From contig OX597835.1 in NCBI GenBank assembly GCA_951406725.2, positions 8,990,001 through 9,054,000 of the forward strand: a stretch of 64,000 bases of DNA, written 5' to 3'. Source of the stretch: Octopus vulgaris (Eukaryota). Made by a program: the position numbers and the translations under genes. Positions 12,815-62,455 of this stretch are shown piece after piece; positions within the stretch are counted from its first letter, which is position 1; every line of letters starts with the position of its first letter. The notes beneath the pieces are model-generated. The model was not told where the DNA came from and ran no database searches. It worked only from the letters and a program-made list of their open reading frames with translations.

Positions 12815-13458
12815 CGTCTTTCTACTTTCATCAGTTGATGAATTGGCAATAAAGCTTAGTTCAAACCATACAACTGTTCATCGTCATCTTCATGAAACTT
12901 CGCGGAAAAAAGGGTCTTCTCTCTATCTGGTGGGATTGCAAAGGTGTAATTCACTTTGAATTGTTACCACCTAATGCAACAATCAATGCCAAAGTCTACT
13001 GTCAGCAATTAGAGTGTTTTGAACAAAGCTTTGAAGAAAAACAGACCTGCTTTAGTGAATCGAAATGGAGTGATGTTTCATTAGGACAATGCGCGACTCC
13101 ACACTGCAAAGTTCACATCACAGAAGATCGAAGAGCTTGGCTGGGAAAAAAATCCTCATCCAGCTTATTCTTCCCACCTTGCTCCTTCAGACAAACCATT
13201 TGTTTCGTAGTTTACAGAATCATTTGGAAGATAAAACTTTCGCGTGCCAGGAGGAGGTCGAAATTGACATTTCAGAGTTCTTCGCTTTGAAACCAAAAGA
13301 GTTTTACATTGATGGGATTAAAAAGCTTGTAAGTAGACGGAAATAAGTCATAGATAATCAGGGAACGTACATTGATGATTAAATTTCAATTAAATATAAC
13401 ATTTGATCACTTGTTTTCTTTATTCAAAATTCGGACAGAACTTATGGGATGACCTGAT
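12815..13458 (+). mobile_element. Mariner (Tc1/mariner) transposon, degraded 3' half with right TIR
   Basis: LLSIWWDCKGVIHFELLPPNATINAKVYCQQL; frameshifted DNA.PH and HPAYS..LAPSD; HLFRSLQNHL…FYIDGIKKLVSR; terminus CGGACAGAACTTATGGGATGACCTGAT. Confidence 0.92.
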
Positions 13459-19815: not shown

Positions 19816-20021
19816 TGCAAAATGTGACAGCGTGTGTATCGTTGGCGACTTCCTTCCTCTGTCTTCCCTTCCTTTGGATTTTTCTCTACTTCTGAAGAAG
19901 TGCTTGACTCGAAACGTTGAATCCTCTTTCTTTCCTTTCTTGAGCGTCTGATAATACAACACTTGTACCACGTCCTCGCATTATTACTTTTACTTCTTTG
20001 TTCTTCCATGCTTGGATTCAT

Positions 20022-20022: not shown

Positions 20023-20044
<22 letters not shown>

Positions 20045-20055
<11 letters not shown>

Positions 20056-20423
20056 GAGGGCATTATATATACATGCCAGAAGGCATTATACATACATGCC
20101 AAACGCTAAGAGGGACAATTAGTCATTTCTACCAAAAATATTACTAATCCCACCGAATGCAATTTTTCAAAGTAAGACAAAGAAAAATTGCATTCGGTGG
20201 GATTAAGTAATATTTTTGGTAGAAATGACTAATTGTCCCTCTTAGCGTTTGGCATGTATGTATAATGCCTCTGGCATGTATATATAATGCCCTCTATATA
20301 TAAATTAATATGTTCAATAAGAAATAATTATTTTCGAAATTTTTTCTCTTATGAGGTTTTTACGCTATCTACCTGACAATTTCTTGTTAAGTTTTCCTTA
20401 TTAAGTAGTTGTCCTTAATTGCT

Positions 20424-32700: not shown

Positions 32701-32948
32701 GCGTGGATGTATTTGATAATATATGCAAATACTTTCCGAAGTATATTAAGGGAAGTGTGAATATAAATGCTCACGTTGTTGTACGTGATGTAGCGGAAGT
32801 AGAGAAAATACGAATCGGATGCGCAACAAGATAAAGTATACTTGTCCCAATATGAATTTCAATGTTAGTAATTTACATAGAATGATGTGGGTGAGGTTGA
32901 AGAACAAGAAGTTTAGAGAAAGAAATTGCTATGAAAATATATATATAT

Positions 32949-33004
32949 TTGTTCCACGTCCTCGCGTTGTTGTGTTTTTTTGTGCTTTCTTGTTTGGATT
33001 AACT
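32949..33004 (+). mobile_element. 3'-terminal fragment of the 19816/36249 pLTR family
   Basis: TTCCACGTCCTCGCGTTGTTG…TGTTTGGATTAAC between TA runs. Confidence 0.7.
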
Positions 33005-33267
33005 ATATATATACAGAGAGAGAGAGAGAGAGACCACTGTGACTGTCGTATTGTGTGTATGTGTATGCGTGTATGTATATACATATAAGTGTTGGCGTAT
33101 CAGTATATATACATCCACCTACATATATAAATATATGTGCGTGTGTGTGTGTACATAAATGTATACACATATGCATATATATTTTCATGTACGTATATCT
33201 GTATGTATATGTATAGATACATAGATAGATACGTAGATATAATGGATAGATAGTCACATAGATAGAT

Positions 33268-33331: not shown

Positions 33332-33375
<44 letters not shown>

Positions 33376-33376
<1 letters not shown>

Positions 33377-33428
33377 AGCTTCCTGAAGATTTCTCTTGAA
33401 TGAAACAGTACTAGTCCTGTAGAAGCTC
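33376..33428 (+). ncRNA. Type-I hammerhead ribozyme (within insert 33375-33503 in (TA)n)
   Basis: Stem I GAGCTTC/GAAGCTC (7 bp), CTGAAGA, stem II TTC/GAA, GAA, stem III ACAG/CTGT with loop containing palindromic ACTAGT, GUA cleavage triplet ending at 33421. Confidence 0.8.
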
Positions 33429-33499
33429 CTTCTATATAATAAATTAATTTTACTCTGCTATGTATTAGTACCTTATTACTGTGTTAACCGAATCAACCC

Positions 33500-33541
<42 letters not shown>

Positions 33542-36248: not shown

Positions 36249-36446
36249 TATCGTTGGCGATTTTCTTTCTCCGTTTTCCCTTCTTTCGACTTTTTCTATA
36301 TTTCTGACGAAGAGCTCCGCTCGAAACGTGAAATCCGCTTTCTTTTCTTTCCTTTCCTGAGCGTCCAATAACACTGTACTTATTCCACGTCCTCGTGTTG
36401 CTGTTTTTTGTTGTTTTTTTTTTTGCTTGTTCATGTTTGGATTAAC
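36249..36446 (+). mobile_element. Penelope-like pLTR/retrozyme copy; minimal hammerhead at 36300-36334
   Basis: ATTT-CTGACGA-A-GAGC TCC GCTC-GAAAC-GTG-AAAT; flanked by (TA)n. Confidence 0.75.
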
Positions 36447-36472
36447 TATATATATATCTATATATACATCTA

Positions 36473-36552
<80 letters not shown>

Positions 36553-36558
<6 letters not shown>

Positions 36559-37084
36559 TAAATAAATGGCACAACGAAGCACCGATATTTACTGGAAAAT
36601 AGCGAACGTAGTAAATACGACGCTAATGTATAGCCTCACTGCGTATGTACTAGTAAAGATGCGTGTGTGCAACAAACATGGAAAAATTTGTCTTACCTCT
36701 AGGAAGAACATATGAAAAATGAAAAACCTAGAAACGGATAATGCAGGACCGGTTTCAGACTCTTCAAAATACGTTTGCCAATGTATATTTGATTTGTCAT
36801 CATCAGCTGCATAAACCTCGACAACATTTCAAATGTTGCCACAACCATGCCAGTACACTCGTCTGAACGCCAAAACGTTAACAGAACGAGAACAGTGAAG
36901 AAGTTTCAATGAAAATAGTAATGCAATACGAGTGTATTGCTTTCCAGTAAAGGATAGCCCGTAAGGGTAAAATTATACATATAAAAGTAAATAAATTGCA
37001 CAACGAAGCACCGATATTTACTGGAAAATAGCGAACGTAATAAATCCGACGCTAATGTATAGCTTCACTGCGTATGCACTAGTA
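36553..37084 (-). mobile_element. 429-bp hammerhead-containing unit plus ~100-bp partial tandem copy (retrozyme/pLTR-like)
   Basis: TAAAAGTAAATAAAT…ACTAGTAA at 36553 and again at 36982; adjoins (TA)n. Confidence 0.75.
36741..36812 (-). ncRNA. Type-I hammerhead ribozyme
   Basis: Minus strand: ATGCAG-CTGATGA-T GAC…GTC T-GAAAC CG GTC-CTGCAT; perfect 6-bp stem I, palindromic ACCGGT stem III, GUC triplet. Confidence 0.85.
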
Positions 37085-37100
37085 ATATAAGATGATATAA

Positions 37101-37217
37101 CCTCTTAGTTTCCTACCATATATTTTACAATCAATAAGCAATTGTACGGTTGCTATATCGCTGATGCATAGACTTCCTGTAGAATATGTCCATATCTCGG
37201 ACGCTCCCTGTCATAGC

Positions 37218-37220
<3 letters not shown>
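37101..37220 (+). repeat. ~120-bp dispersed duplication of 39356-39475
   Basis: CCTCTTAGTTTCCTACCATATATTTTAC…CTCCCTGTCA(T/A)AGCGTAT at both sites with about 5 differences. Confidence 0.9.
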
Positions 37221-37266
<46 letters not shown>

Positions 37267-37354
37267 GACACACATGCAAGCGTAAAATTATATATGTGTT
37301 TGTATATATAATAATATATAAATACACGCACACTTGCATACATACATGCATATA

Positions 37355-37587
37355 TATTTCTTTACTACCCACAAGGGGCTAAACGCAGAGGGGACAAACA
37401 AGGACAGACAAACAGATTAAATCGATTACATCGACCCCAATGCGTAACTGGTACTTAATTTATCGATCCCGAAAGGATGAAAGGCAAAGTCGACCTCGGC
37501 GGAATTTGAACCCAGAACGTAACGGCAGACGAAATACGGCTACGCATTTCGCCCGGCGTGCTAACGATTCTGCCAGCCCACCGCCTT
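37355..37587 (-). mobile_element. Family D SINE, full length
   Basis: Reverse complement of the 14884-type element. Confidence 0.9.
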
Positions 37588-38337
37588 ATAGGCACGCGTA
37601 CACATACACACACAGATAGAGAGAGAAGTGTATGTGAATGTGTGCGCCTACATCAATATTATCGACAAGCATCAATATTCAATTTATATTTCCTTTGTTA
37701 CTGTTTTCTCACATCAGAGTGTGAAATGGTTTACTACAGAAACACTCGGCGAAGAGACACTTCCAGCTTTTCTGTTGTCCTATACGTATCCTGAATGAAA
37801 CGAACGCATATACATCTGTACAGGCCTTACGTTGAGCAATTGGCTGGTTCAGAGGCCAAATTAGCATCTACGAAGTATTTCTATTTCACTTGTTATATCA
37901 TCTTATATTACTTGAAATACAGGCTGCAATACAGCATTATTCAGTGACAAGCACTTTGGATTCCATTCATACACGAAATGTTCATAATCAAAAATTAACC
38001 CTTGTGATTATATCTCACACATTATATACATGGACGCTTCAAAGCCCCTGGTGGTATTTCTTAAGTGCTTCTGTCTCACTTGTCTTATTACGTTCCAGTT
38101 ATTGTAAACGTTTAAATCTCTTTAAATACATTGGTAAAACTTTAGTTTAAAAACTCGATTCTCAAGAAAACACTTACGACAAGTTATTCTGTGGTTAGTG
38201 ACGTTGTGATTGGATGCCAAGTGTATAAGCGCTCTGAGAAAAACAATGTAGCTCTTGCAATTTCGATTCACCAACAGACCGACAATTGAGATTTTGGTTC
38301 TATACTGCTTCACGCATATTCATTACGGCCGTTCATA

Positions 38338-38722
38338 TAGGAGCACTCCGTCGGTTGCGACGATGAGGGTCCCAGCTGATACGATCAACGGAACAGCTTG
38401 CTCGTGATATTAACGTGCAAGTGGCTGAGCACTCCACAGACACGTGTACCCTTAACGTAGTTCTCGAGGAGATTCAGCGTGACACACGGAATGTGACAGG
38501 CTGGCCATTTGAAATACAGGTACAAGAGAAACAGGAAGAAGGAGTGAGAGAAAGTTGTGGTGAAAGAGTACAGCAGGGTTCACCACCACCCCCTGCCGGA
38601 GCCTCGTGGAGCTTTTAGGTGTTTTCGCTCAATAAACACTCACAATGCCCGGTCTGGGAATCGAAACCGCGATCCTCCGACCGCGAGTCCACTGCCCTAA
38701 TCACTGGGCCATTGCGCCTCAA
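38338..38722 (-). mobile_element. Family A SINE, full length
   Basis: Reverse complement of 966-1347; TSD ACGGCCGTTCATA at 38325-38337 and 38723-38735. Confidence 0.92.
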
Positions 38723-39697
38723 ACGGCCGTTCATACACGTCGGTTTCTCACCAATGGTTCAATGGAGTGTTAGGTAACACACAGTTGAACCCCACCAAAT
38801 GCAAAGAATTGGTAAGAACGGTGGCAATGGCTATATAATAATGTACGCTGCAATTATTATACCCACTCTATTGACAGATATATGAGTGCACTTTTCCTAA
38901 CTTACGGACTCTTAGACGACTTACACCCCCCACACGCACACCCACCCACATGCATATACCTTTCTTAAACATATCTACACTCAGACTCATCAGAATTTTT
39001 AAAACGTTTTCCATCCCTCACAAAGTGAATGCTTTACGTTTGCCTGTTTATATTTGTATGATCCTTTTGTCTCTCCTTCGCTATCACTGCCAATTTCTTC
39101 GTATCTCTCTTCCCAATAATTTTCTACCGCAAACATCCTTTCGTATATTCTCATCATTCCCCTCATTCTGTCACACCACAATATTATTTTGCATACTTTT
39201 GCATATCAGTTATTTTTAACAATTTTGTTCATTTTTGCACACTCCCAAACGCACACACGTTTATTTTGTTAATTTATTTTATTATTTATATGTATACCTT
39301 ATGCAGATTCTCCATTTTCTCAACTGCATGGCTTCTTTCGGATTTATATTAGCATCCTCTTAGTTTCCTACCATATATTTTACAATCAATAAGCAATTGT
39401 ACGGTTGCTATATCGCAGATGGATAGATTTCCTGTAGAATATGTCCATATCTCGGAGGCTCCCTGTCAAAGCGTATTTACATTCGAGGTGATTCTGCCAT
39501 GACAGAATCCTACACTCAACACCAAAACCCCCATCAGCTCTATTGTTATACCAAAGATGTCAAGTTGTTCCGATTACGGTTCTGCTGCATAGTCACACAC
39601 TTGCTGCCCCTTTAAGCCCCACCCCACCCCCACCCCAGCGCTCTCCCTAAATAACTTAAGTTACAACCGGTTTCATAGTGAATTAGGTAATCTCTTT

Positions 39698-40027
39698 GAG
39701 GGCGCGTGGCTTAGTGGTTAGGGCATTCGGCTCATGATCGTAAGGTTGTGAGTTCGATTCCCGGCGACGCGTTGTGTCCTTGAGCAAGACACTTTATTTC
39801 ACGTTGCTCCAGTCCACTCAGCTGGCAAAAATGAGTTGTACTTGTATTTCAAAGGGTCAGCCTTGTCACTCTCTGTGTCACGCTGATTATCCCCGAGAAC
39901 TACGTTAAGGGTACACGTGTCTGTGGAATGCTCAGCCATTTGCACGTTAATTTCACGAGCAAGCTGTTCCGTTGATCGTATCAGCTGGGACCCTCATCGT
40001 CGCAACCGATGGAGTCTTTAAAAAAAA
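39698..40027 (+). mobile_element. CORE-type SINE, family B (OR2-like), full length
   Basis: tRNA head (TGGCTTAGTGG, GTTCGATTCC); MIR-CORE-like TGTGTCCTTGAGCAAGACACTT; tail shared with family A; short poly-A; TSD AGGTAATCTCTTT at 39685-39697 and 40028-40040. Confidence 0.9.
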
Positions 40028-45679: not shown

Positions 45680-48430
45680 CCGGGTTCAATCTTACCTTAC
45701 CGTGCAGTATACTTTAGCATATCTTGTGATTGAATTTGCATCGACTGGAACCTATCGGAAGAATTGTTCCTGTAGTACAAATATCTACCTTACAATGTGC
45801 CACATCAAACATGTTGTGACATCAAGCAATGCTGATACACACAACCAAGAAATCCACTGAGATGATAACATACCGGGTTCAATCTTACCGTGCAGTATAC
45901 TTTAGCATATCTTGTGATTGAATTTGCATCGACTGGAACCTATCGGAAGAATTGTTCCTGTAGTACAAATATCTACCTAACAATGTGCCACATCAAACAT
46001 GTTGTGACATCAAGCAATGCTGATACACACAACCAAGAAATCCACTGAGATGATAACATACCGGGTTCAATCTTACCGTGCAGTATACTTTAGCATATCT
46101 TGTGATTGAATTTGCATCGACTGGAACCTATCGGAAGAATTGTTCCTGTAGTACAAATATCTACCTTACAATGTGCCACATCAAACATGTTGTGACATCA
46201 AGCAATGCTGATACACACAACCAAGAAATCCACTGAGATGATAACATACCGGGTTCAATCTTACCGTGCAGTATACTTTAGCATATCTTGTGATTGAATT
46301 TGCATCGACTGGAACCTATCGGAAGAATTGTTCCTGTAGTACAAATATCTACCTTACAATGTGCCTCATCAAACATGTTGTGACATCAAGCAATGCTGAT
46401 ACACACAACCAAGAAATCCACTGAGATGATAACATACCGGGTTCAATCTTACCGTGCAGTATACTTTAGCATATCTTGTGATTGAATTTGCATCGACTGG
46501 AACCTATCGGAAGAATTGTTCCTGTAGTACAAATATCTACCTTACAATGTGCCACATCAAACATGTTGTGACATCAAGCAATGCTGATACACACAACCAA
46601 GAAATCCACTGAGATGATAACATACCGGGTTCAATCTTACCGTGCAGTATACTTTAGCATATCTTGTGATTGAATTTGCATCGACTGGAACCTATCGGAA
46701 GAATTGTTCCTGTAGTACAAATATCTACCTTACAATGTGCCACATCAAACATGTTGTGACATCAAGCAATGCTGATACACACAACCAAGAAATCCACTGA
46801 GATGATAACATACCGGGTTCAATCTTACCGTGCAGTATACTTTAGCATATCTTGTGATTGAATTTGCATCGACTGGAACCTATCGGAAGAATTGTTCCTG
46901 TAGTACAAATATCTACCTTACAATGTGCCACATCAAGCATGTTGTGACATCAAGCAATGCTGATACACACAACCAAGAAATCCACTGAGATGATAACATA
47001 CCGGGTTCAATCTTACCGTGCAGTATACTTTAGCATATCTTGTGATTGAATTTGCATCGACTGGAACCTATCGGAAGAATTGTTCCTGTAGTACAAATAT
47101 CTACCTTACAATGTGCCACATCAAACATGTTGTGACATCAAGCAATGCTGATACACACAACCAAGAAATCCACTGAGATGATAACATACCGGGTTCAATC
47201 TTACCGTGCAGTATACTTTAGCATATCTTGTGATTGAATTTGCATCGACTGGAACCTATCGGAAGAATTGTTCCTGTAGTACAAATATCTACCTTACAAT
47301 GTGCCACATCAAACATGTTGTGACATCAAGCAATGCTGATACACACAACCAAGAAATCCACTGAGATGATAACATACCGGGTTCAATCTTACCGTGCAGT
47401 ATACTTTAGCATATCTTGTGATTGAATTTGCATCGACCGGAACCTATCGGAAGAATTGTTCCTGTAGTACAAATATCTACCTTACAATGTGCCACATCAA
47501 ACATGTTGTGACATCAAGCAATGCTGATACACACAACCAAGAAATCCACTGAGATGATAACATACCGGGTTCAATCTTACCGTGCAGTATACTTTAGCAT
47601 ATCTTGTGATTGAATTTGCATCGACTGGAACCTATCGGAAGAATTGTTCCTGTAGTACAAATATCTACCTTACAATGTGCCACATCAAACATGTTGTGAC
47701 ATCAAGCAATGCTGATACACACAACCAAGAAATCCACTGAGATGATAACATACCGGGTTCAATCTTACCGTGCAGTATACTTTAGCATATCTTGTGATTG
47801 AATTTGCATCGACTGGAACCTATCGGAAGAATTGTTCCTGTAGTACAAATATCTACCTTACAATGTGCCTCATCAAACATGTTGTGACATCAAGCAATGC
47901 TGATACACACAACCAAGAAATCCACTGAGATGATAACATACCGGGTTCAATCTTACCGTGCAGTATACTTTAGCATATCTTGTGATTGAATTTGCATCGA
48001 CTGGAACCTATCGGAAGAATTGTTCCTGTAGTACAAATATCTACCTTACAATGTGCCACATCAAACATGTTGTGACATCAAGCAATGCTGATACACACAA
48101 CCAAGAAATCCACTGAGATGATAACATACCGGGTTCAATCTTACCGTGCAGTATACTTTAGCATATCTTGTGATTGAATTTGCATCGACTGGAACTATCG
48201 GAAGAATTGTTCCGTAGTACAAATATCTACCTTACAATGTGCCTATCAAACATGTTGTGACATCAAGCAATGCTGATGTGATTGTAATTTGCATATCGAC
48301 GACTGAACCTATCGGAAGAATTGTTCCTGTAGTACAAATATCTACCTTACAATGTGCCACATCAAACATGTTGTGACATCAAGCAATGCTGATACACACA
48401 ACCAAGAAATCCACTGAGATGATAACATTC
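45680..48430. repeat. 188-bp tandem repeat array, ~15 units, starting within a decayed SINE
   Basis: CCGGGTTCAATCTTACC at 45680, 45873, 46061, 46249 … 48129 (period 188); units nearly identical; last two rearranged. Confidence 0.97.
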
Positions 48431-61062: not shown

Positions 61063-61552
61063 GGATATATTGAGGAGTTGAATGAATTATCTTATTATGG
61101 ATAATTCGGTTAACCGATACCTGGGTAGCAAATTCACGTCAGAAAAACACGGTTGAAGCTACATGCCAAGGGCAGAGATCACGTGCTTTCGTGTGGAAAT
61201 TTGTGTGTTTTTTTTAATACAAATAAATAAAAGAATGGAGTTGAACGACGAATTAACAAAATTCCTTTATTCTCGATATATGTTTCGAAGGCTGCATATT
61301 CCTAATTTCGAAGGAATAAGGGGTACATCATGCCGCCTTCTCATCAGGAAAAACAACGAAGTTATGTCAGCATCAAGATGAACAGAAACTTTTAGATGAC
61401 TGCCCACACGGAGCCCATAGCGATAATGAGTGTTTCTTTAAAATATTCCGTTATAAGCTTATAACGGAATATATACTGCTTATATGCAGCCTTCGAAACA
61501 TATGTCGAGAATAAAGGAATTTTGTTAATTCGTCGTTCAACTCCATTCTTTC

Positions 61553-61556
<4 letters not shown>
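61063..61556 (-). mobile_element. Penelope-like pLTR with fold-back inversion between (TA)n tracts
   Basis: Arms 61230-61299 and 61482-61551; perfect 30-bp palindrome at 61443-61472; contains a hammerhead. Confidence 0.8.
61270..61352 (-). ncRNA. Type-I hammerhead ribozyme
   Basis: Minus strand: TTTTC-CTGATGA-GAAGGCGGCAT…ATGCAGCCTTC-GAAAC ATAT ATC-GAGAA; the inverted arm preserves GAAACATATGTC (palindromic ACATATGT, GUC). Confidence 0.8.
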
Positions 61557-61621
<65 letters not shown>

Positions 61622-61768: not shown

Positions 61769-62082
61769 ATCTCTTAAGATATATAGAATAGAAGTTCAAT
61801 TCCTGCATGTTGAGCAAACGGCTGCAAACCGTTCAATATTAACATTTATACACAAAGAACATAGCATAAACCATGGAATAGACCTTAGACAAGGGAGTAA
61901 AGTTGTGTATACTGGAGTTGTAAGTTAAGAATATAACAATATATTCATCTAGTGTGTTATGTGTAAGAAAAACACAAGTAGATATAATAGGTAAAAATGT
62001 CATATTGTGATATTATGTCCATCCGTATTAAACCAATAGAAAATTAGAATGTAGGGTTTAATTCAAGTGTGTATAGTTATTA

Positions 62083-62455
62083 GAATGGTTGTGTACTGTC
62101 AATCTAAGGTGAACGTGACAGTAGGGGGTTACATCACCGCTGTTTAGCCCTAGGAAGCATCGAAGCTTCCTGATGGCTTCGACACATTTTTCCTGTGTCC
62201 TTATATACATTTACGAAGGGGAGACAAACACCCCCAGCAGCCAGACCTGCAGGTGTGGGTCTCCCCTTCGTAAATGTATATAAGGACACAGGAAAAATGT
62301 GTCGAAGCCATCAGGAAGCTTCGATGCTTCCTAGGGCTAAACAGCGGTGATGTAACCCCCTACTGTCACGTTCACGTTAGATTGACAGTATACAACCATT
62401 CTATCGCCCCACCACCGTACATATCTCTATGAGAGATTTAGAAATTTGATATTTC
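62083..62455. mobile_element. Hairpin-forming insertion (~145-bp arms plus ~50-bp tail) with a 13-bp flanking direct repeat
   Basis: Arms 62081-62225 and 62259-62403 (2 mismatches seen); TGTATAGTTATTA at 62070-62082 and 62456-62468. Confidence 0.8.

Follow-up and report, generated by a model that had tools for sequence, protein, structure and literature searches.

The locus considered here raises the question of how a short, protein-free sequence with a self-cleaving ribozyme motif came to lie, in slightly more than one copy of its own unit, against a simple TA repeat. The window, by which we mean the whole 64-kb stretch that was analysed, is AT-rich, microsatellite-rich eukaryotic DNA, and the element within it spans 36553-37085, or 1.24 units of 429 nt with 37% GC. 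We regard it as probable, with a good deal of doubt left over, that this is a dispersed and decayed daughter copy of a high-copy family of animal non-LTR retrozymes that rides on the enzyme of a Penelope-like element (PLE). The kind is already known from other animals; this copy keeps unusually readable traces of its insertion.

A sequence-only reading of the region had reported that about 100 bp recur at a period of 429, and this is borne out. Positions 36545-36656 match 36974-37085 over 112 nt at 95% identity and a spacing of 429, and beyond the TA run the repeat measures 104 nt, with five differences between its first copy, segment A (36553-36656), and its second, segment A′ (36982-37085). 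On the minus strand, the full unit with its rod-like fold occupies 36553-36981, segment A is the RNA-3′ terminal part, and A′ runs 0.24 unit past one length to the point where the depth of the family ends. The same reading found no ORF in the unit, rightly, as the longest stop-free frame wholly inside the element has 79 aa and a Pfam scan of two element frames (79 and 68 aa) gave no match. It had also held that a constantly attached reverse transcriptase (RT) or GIY-YIG ORF would mark the sequence as an ordinary pLTR; none was found near the element, and neither domain was matched by any of the 136 stop-free window frames scanned. These were the non-low-complexity frames among 508 of at least 50 aa, taken from 50 aa upwards if starting at 30-44 kb and from 75 aa elsewhere, and their other Pfam results were one mariner transposase match and one sub-threshold YwiC match. 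The 64-kb window holds no ORF longer than 197 aa. One minus frame contains a YIG-like word, which falls on the stem II hairpin of the ribozyme and was put down to chance. Scans for bacterial promoters and terminators and for tRNAs added nothing on the element, and pattern scans of metagenomes and viral contigs gave no match.

The unit carries a canonical type I hammerhead at 36741-36812, recognized by motif scan, by likeness to Rfam HH9 and by family variation, and present on the minus strand of the element only. Read from 36812 to 36741, it consists of a 6-bp stem I, CUGAUGA, an extended stem II and GAAAC-CG-GUC, with the GUC at 36749-36747 and a predicted cut between 36747 and 36746. Stem II is made of 4 bp and a long extension, giving 43 nt between the core boxes, and stem III is a single base pair capped by a palindromic CCGG loop. 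A strict motif scan of the window returned four matches, one of which alone combines the 6-bp stem I with the GAAAC-CG-GUC core, and a 17-nt core probe matched the window once at up to three mismatches. Minimal-type hammerhead motifs at 36304, 19892 and 33383 look unlike this ribozyme. The position, strand, stem I, extended stem II and core given earlier for "the cleanest hammerhead" of the window all stand, however, "clean" does not, given that stem II starts from a U·U at its base and has one A·C mismatch along its extension. The U·U is private to this copy and is not a family trait. To judge by its letters, the ribozyme is canonical in class, apparently degraded in this copy and apparently intact in the family. 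Folded alone, the ribozyme segment is no more stable than shuffles (z 0.14), and a co-fold of two such segments gives a plain duplex, which says nothing of an active dimer.

The best Rfam match is Hammerhead_HH9 (RF02275), whose 21.1 bits fall short of the gathering score of 52 (E=0.013, 641 nt searched), and in the scan of the whole window the ribozyme was absent among the matches listed (150 of 154), which include microsatellite-driven miRNA matches. HH9 is a single-copy intronic amniote ribozyme. It resembles the element in the 5-bp run of stem I beside the core and in the flanks of stem III, where the HH9 consensus and the element are letter-for-letter alike, whereas the element has a shorter stem III and a longer stem II. 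Closer parallels come from other metazoans. Canonical metazoan hammerheads are described as having a 6-bp helix I, a 4-bp helix II and a helix III of 1-2 bp with a palindromic loop, and as needing a second copy for good cleavage; those of metazoan PLEs are described as mostly minimal, with 4-5 bp in helix I and without helix III, some variants carrying a small palindromic helix III (PMC4209133). In the axolotl/newt satellite-2 type, HHR_Amex1 of the axolotl is reported to share the one-pair helix III and palindromic tetraloop and to cleave far better as a dimer (PMC7229834), although it differs from the present ribozyme, which has the long extension of stem II. In HHR_Amex2, a U·U in the basal position of stem II is described as a family trait (PMC7229834), whereas here it is private to the copy.

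The abundance of the sequence was assessed from the contigs of four of 24 public runs (X1, X4, X8, and X17), aligned to 36657-37218, a reference that holds one permuted unit without internal repeat; in the survey of all 24 runs, 20 contain part of the stretch, none contains half of it, and no RNA run is listed among those that contain it. X1 and X4, which stand for organism labels A and B, yielded 1,396 and 1,092 aligned contigs, over half of them less than 95% identical. Summed depth in these two runs is 9,000-420,000 up to about 37085 and 45-47 thereafter, that is 200-9,000 times the flank up to the repeat end, so the possibility that the sequence is single-copy, earlier named as fatal to a retrozyme, fails. 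The median ratio to the flank (47 and 45) is 1,799 in X1 and 1,515 in X4, figures that treat the flank as presumably single-copy and draw on a summed depth that overcounts overlapping contigs. As a strict lower bound, one word in segment A is common to at least about 160 copies and one in the ribozyme to at least 11-16. Depth profiles of X1 and X4 agree across the two organism labels (Spearman 0.96), and that of X8, which like X17 may derive from RNA, follows these DNA runs at 0.82-0.84. The copies of this family are many, and with one copy in the 64-kb window they are presumably dispersed.

The shape of the profile is informative as well. Depth in segment A is 3-4 times that of the unique part, which suggests many 5′-truncated or 1.x-unit copies, and such PLE-type copies fit this depth better than long tandem arrays do. 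Joints from segment A to the unique part, at which 37082 is followed by 36657-36682, are present in X1, X4, and X8, and read-through from the unique part into segment A occurs in diverged contigs (X4 record 23, X8 record 31 and four X1 loose ends behind 36973). Since both unit junctions recur in other copies, the unit is circularly continuous in the family; no listed contig piece spans the whole 429-nt unit, the pieces being too short to display multimers. Contigs that run on into unlike sequence make up 0-1% in X1 and X4, a weak measure given that branch points break up contigs. In X17, a contig of 1,087 nt (record 11) matches 36815-36855 only, beyond which it turns into a related ribozyme arm whose stem II differs, together with about 1 kb more; it may represent a longer relative or else a parent element. 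The retrozyme-like architecture proposed earlier is supported in the sense of an abundant element that encodes no protein and whose ribozyme and rod-like fold are conserved.

The minus strand of the unit folds with z of -4.8 and -3.7, and with -4.2 to -5.1 when treated as a linear or a circular RNA; its complement, the plus strand, folds nearly as well (z -3.9 and -4.3), and four of 41 control windows of equal length reached z -4, three of them with inverted repeats and one half microsatellite. Three nested long-range helices are predicted on the minus strand between 36588 and 36951, pairing 36951-36941 with 36588-36598 (mean pair probability 0.76), 36900-36892 with 36634-36642 (0.98) and 36857-36850 with 36646-36653 (0.97). 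Together they would close the unit into a rod. The ribozyme would sit at one pole of it, and the unit junction would form the opposite pole, at 194 and 235 nt from the cut. At this junction, a TA-rich patch (36972-36985, minus strand) is largely unpaired in the predicted circle and is a candidate priming site.

Variation among copies can be set against this fold. From 36 variant rows, 26 were classed after dropping four beyond the element, three private to A′ and three seen only in the shallow X17; four of them keep a predicted pair, seven would form one, nine are neutral, and six break one. The expected break rate is 43-48% (P 0.008-0.03 for the observed 6/26), and one of the six pair-breaking rows is the partner of a covarying pair. 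At six sites, about 95% or more of the X1 depth carries another letter than this copy, and at five of them the family letter is one that makes or preserves a pair (P 0.001-0.003). None of the 27 variable positions falls in the 84 positions of the core, stem I and long helices (P=0.002); for the 28 positions of the ribozyme core alone, the same zero is not significant (P=0.15). Across the family the cut triplet reads GUC or GUA, both of which are cleavable, the letters at the base of stem II pair, and one stem II pair varies on both sides. Among the three private changes of A′, two break pairs and one still pairs, and a frequent one-letter deletion at 37025, in an A run overlapping one helix arm, was left out of the counts. 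These conservation tests are post hoc, and variants near contig ends go unlisted, which may inflate apparent conservation. On this evidence, the family appears to spare the ribozyme core and the three long-range helices while the copy at 36553-37085 has decayed.

The two ends of the insertion differ in character. The RNA-3′ end adjoins a (TA)n/(TATC)n tract at 36447-36552, the left half of the target; the contact with (TA)n that had been described is confirmed, the tract ending at 36552, and the element meets it exactly at the internal TA-rich patch of the unit. An X17 contig of depth 4 has TA letters at the same point, and the case for a fixed 3′ end is made by this contig and the present copy. 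At the RNA-5′ end, the extent assigned earlier holds for the unit copy itself (36553-37085), however, the insertion runs 134 nt further, through locally copied sequence (37086-37219), to a second (TA)n run. The first junction patch (37081-37101) is an exact inverted copy of 37892-37912 and overlaps the end of A′ by 5 nt; such a match is expected by chance at 3e-8 in 6.5 kb. The second (37101-37219) is a direct copy of low-copy DNA at 39356-39474 with 5/119 differences, and merges via TAT into (TA)22 at 37219-37263, the right half of the target. Both donors lack any further match in the window, and they sit 0.7 and 2.1 kb away. As to coverage, bin arithmetic suggests that one X1 contig (depth 27.7) crosses the joint of the two patches, X4 cover starts at 37101, and X8 and X17 have no cover of 37094-37218; these figures are too indirect to decide in which runs the patches are present. 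A 22-nt likeness at 39035-39056, considered as an older copy, was rejected with a score of 29 against a shuffle maximum of 26-33 in six tests.

A and A′ differ at 5/104 positions and the second patch and its donor at 5/119 (Fisher P=1); as the two divergences are equal, a single event fits both, dated by about 2% of change in each copy. Priming at 36553 would make a cDNA extend towards 37085, the patch-bearing end. Microhomology-guided template switches of the kind that such patches recall are familiar from MMBIR and theta-mediated end joining, and the patches may otherwise stem from a break in the (TA)n tract that was repaired at a later time.

On the retrozyme account, tandem source copies elsewhere would be transcribed on the strand that is minus here, and their hammerheads would cut out 429-nt monomers, acting as dimers in view of the single-pair stem III and its palindromic loop. 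The ends of the monomer would then be held together by stem I and the nested helices and ligated into a circle. The protein of an endonuclease-bearing PLE may nick (TA)n and prime at the open TA-rich patch opposite the ribozyme pole, after which RT would copy one round plus 104 nt, and two switches to nearby DNA, guided by microhomology, would link the growing cDNA end to the target. The copy would since have drifted by about 2%. With a single, damaged ribozyme it is probably inert as its sequence stands, and having only one, the locus cannot release a monomer by double cleavage, nor a circle of its own. The self-cleaving replicon of about 429 nt that had been proposed must therefore be qualified, as the locus holds one ribozyme with private stem II mutations and nothing points to a replicon that passes from RNA to RNA.

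A Penelope-like enzyme is the most likely mobilizer. Partial tandems are described as a PLE hallmark, and (TA)n as the reported preferred target of the Naiads, a PLE clade described as being without hammerheads (10.1101/2021.04.23.441226), and copying of a circle beyond one unit has already been proposed for PLEs (PMC4209133). The element resembles endonuclease-bearing PLEs (Penelope/Poseidon, Neptune, Naiad) and their pLTRs as described in its partial tandem, 5′ truncation, microsatellite target and type I hammerhead, but differs in having no RT/GIY-YIG frame and a canonical rather than minimal ribozyme. Non-LTR retrozymes are themselves described as short low-GC tandem repeats with type I hammerheads that are expressed as circles, with PLEs as candidate carriers (Cervera and de la Peña, 2020, PMC7229834). 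A preprint that links retrozymes to PLEs, mainly in vertebrates, describes them as related to pLTRs, with two complete ribozyme units needed for an active copy and monomers as offspring (Li et al., 2026, 10.64898/2026.07.22.740005). The choice between retrozyme and pLTR that the sequence-only reading had posed was well aimed but is not a clean either-or, animal retrozymes having been proposed as non-autonomous PLE derivatives (Li et al., 2026).

Measured against the descriptions in these two sources, the element shares with metazoan non-LTR retrozymes, their solo monomer derivatives included, a canonical type I hammerhead, high copy number, the lack of an ORF and of LTR-type ends and a unit of 150-450 bp with GC below 45%, as well as a self-paired fold that leaves the ribozyme free to form. 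In contrast to an active retrozyme, it has 1.24 units and one ribozyme in place of two, and is therefore filed as a dispersed derivative. The extended stem II, (TA)n-flush end and templated patches are absent from the descriptions given in the available parts of these sources, and 429 nt is slightly above the 170-400 nt of the circles they report. Among the papers listed in literature searches on octopus and cephalopods, none describes such a hammerhead retrozyme family in its title or the opening of its abstract, although supplements, Repbase or Dfam may list it, and the accessible portion of a cephalopod repeat survey (PMC8967140) makes no mention of hammerheads or retrozymes. General background to the topic is given in part in PMC6155905.

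The retrozyme account draws on the high copy number that ends at the repeat, the canonical ribozyme, the conserved rod, the (TA)n 3′ junction and the patchwork 5′ junction; against it stand the single ribozyme at the locus, the greater depth of segment A, the six of 26 rows that break pairs, the private A′ change that still pairs, the non-significant result for the ribozyme core by itself, the plus strand that folds nearly as well, the lack of hammerheads in Naiads and a fixed 3′ end known from this copy and one contig of depth 4. Its main rival is a gutted, that is internally deleted, or pLTR-only non-autonomous PLE made from a linear, terminally redundant transcript, with the 104-nt repeat as an ordinary pseudo-LTR and no free circle, which we take to be a serious though minority possibility. 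PLEs are described as having partial tandems, (TA)n targets and scars at the 5′ junction (10.1101/2021.04.23.441226), and the excess depth of segment A and the X17 contig that runs on from 36815-36855 into related but different sequence agree with it. However, minimal ribozymes such as the neighbouring ones at 36304 and 19892 prevail in metazoan PLEs, whereas the one at 36741-36812 is canonical; the whole unit, beyond the ribozyme, keeps a closed rod; no RT or GIY-YIG match came from the 136 frames; and the 0-1% of X1 and X4 contigs that enter unlike sequence weigh, weakly, in the same direction.

The other explanations have far less in their favour. A linear SINE-like monomer, whose second segment A arose as a third locally templated patch or by later local duplication, would explain why two other local patches of equal divergence lie at the same junction, but the unique-to-A junction recurs in diverged contigs of three runs and hence is a family feature and no local accident, which makes this reading very unlikely. 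Even less likely is an autonomous viroid-like circular RNA, copied from RNA to RNA and occasionally reverse-transcribed into the genome: both strands fold into a rod and the size falls within the viroid range, yet the ribozyme is on one strand only, and hundreds to thousands of genomic copies, with a profile shared by two organism labels, look like an inherited repeat. A TRIM-like or plant-type LTR retrozyme with 104-nt LTRs is the least probable, despite the A-unique-A′ layout that it would predict. Its ribozymes would be of type III and inside the LTRs, whereas this one is of type I and outside the repeats; 37085 is not a fixed end, since in X1, X4, and X8 the loose ends behind 37082 lead on into the unique part; and the repeats are without TG...CA ends.

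The value of the locus lies in its junction record and in a family big enough to test the start point of reverse transcription and the copying of a circle; taken alone, it is probably a dead repeat. Priming and carrier are the questions about animal retrozymes on which the junctions bear, and the copy speaks to them by ending cleanly in (TA)n at a TA-rich patch inside the unit, by overrunning a single unit and by carrying junction patches that can be dated. Animal retrozyme repeats are described in a review as showing no conserved motif that points to a carrier (PMC7761336), and on retrozyme priming our search of the literature turned up plant work alone. We tentatively suggest, as a possibility that we still hold doubtful, that the family is a circular-RNA retroelement with a two-pole rod, in which the hammerhead faces a fixed, open TA-rich priming site that anneals to nicked (TA)n. 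Were this so, copies would share one 3′ end and overrun the origin to differing extents, the carrier would be identified as a Penelope-like enzyme that targets (TA)n, and the family would supply both a priming motif with its partner and population-scale genomic evidence for reverse transcription round a circle.

The window holds several other repeats. A second short family, with a minimal PLE-type hammerhead and a 3′ end that leads into (TA)n, is present on the plus strand at 36252-36446, 19837-20020 and 32946-33013, and the 36252 copy shares its terminal (TA)n tract with the element, tail to tail. A third short family lies between TA runs at 33340-33500 and 1578-1735 (87% identical), with a degenerate hammerhead-like core at 33383. 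Nested inverted duplications at 61100-61564 (69 nt at 99%, 83 nt at 94% and 30 nt at 100%) surround a weak hammerhead-like core at 61351, and a 188-bp tandem array of 13.8 copies at 45696-48277 (99% identical) has no hammerhead core in motif scans. Long self-complementary stretches (94%) at 20039-20311 and 62081-62403, where overlapping 429-nt windows reach z of -22 and -39, are foldback or MITE-like. SINE-like repeats, which may resemble octopod ones, occupy 37351-37591, 38360-38493 and 39700-40000, the first with several copies in the window, and a weak tRNA match covers 39702-39771. A mariner-type transposase fragment is found at 12853-13287 on the plus strand (Pfam Transposase_1, E=9.5e-18).
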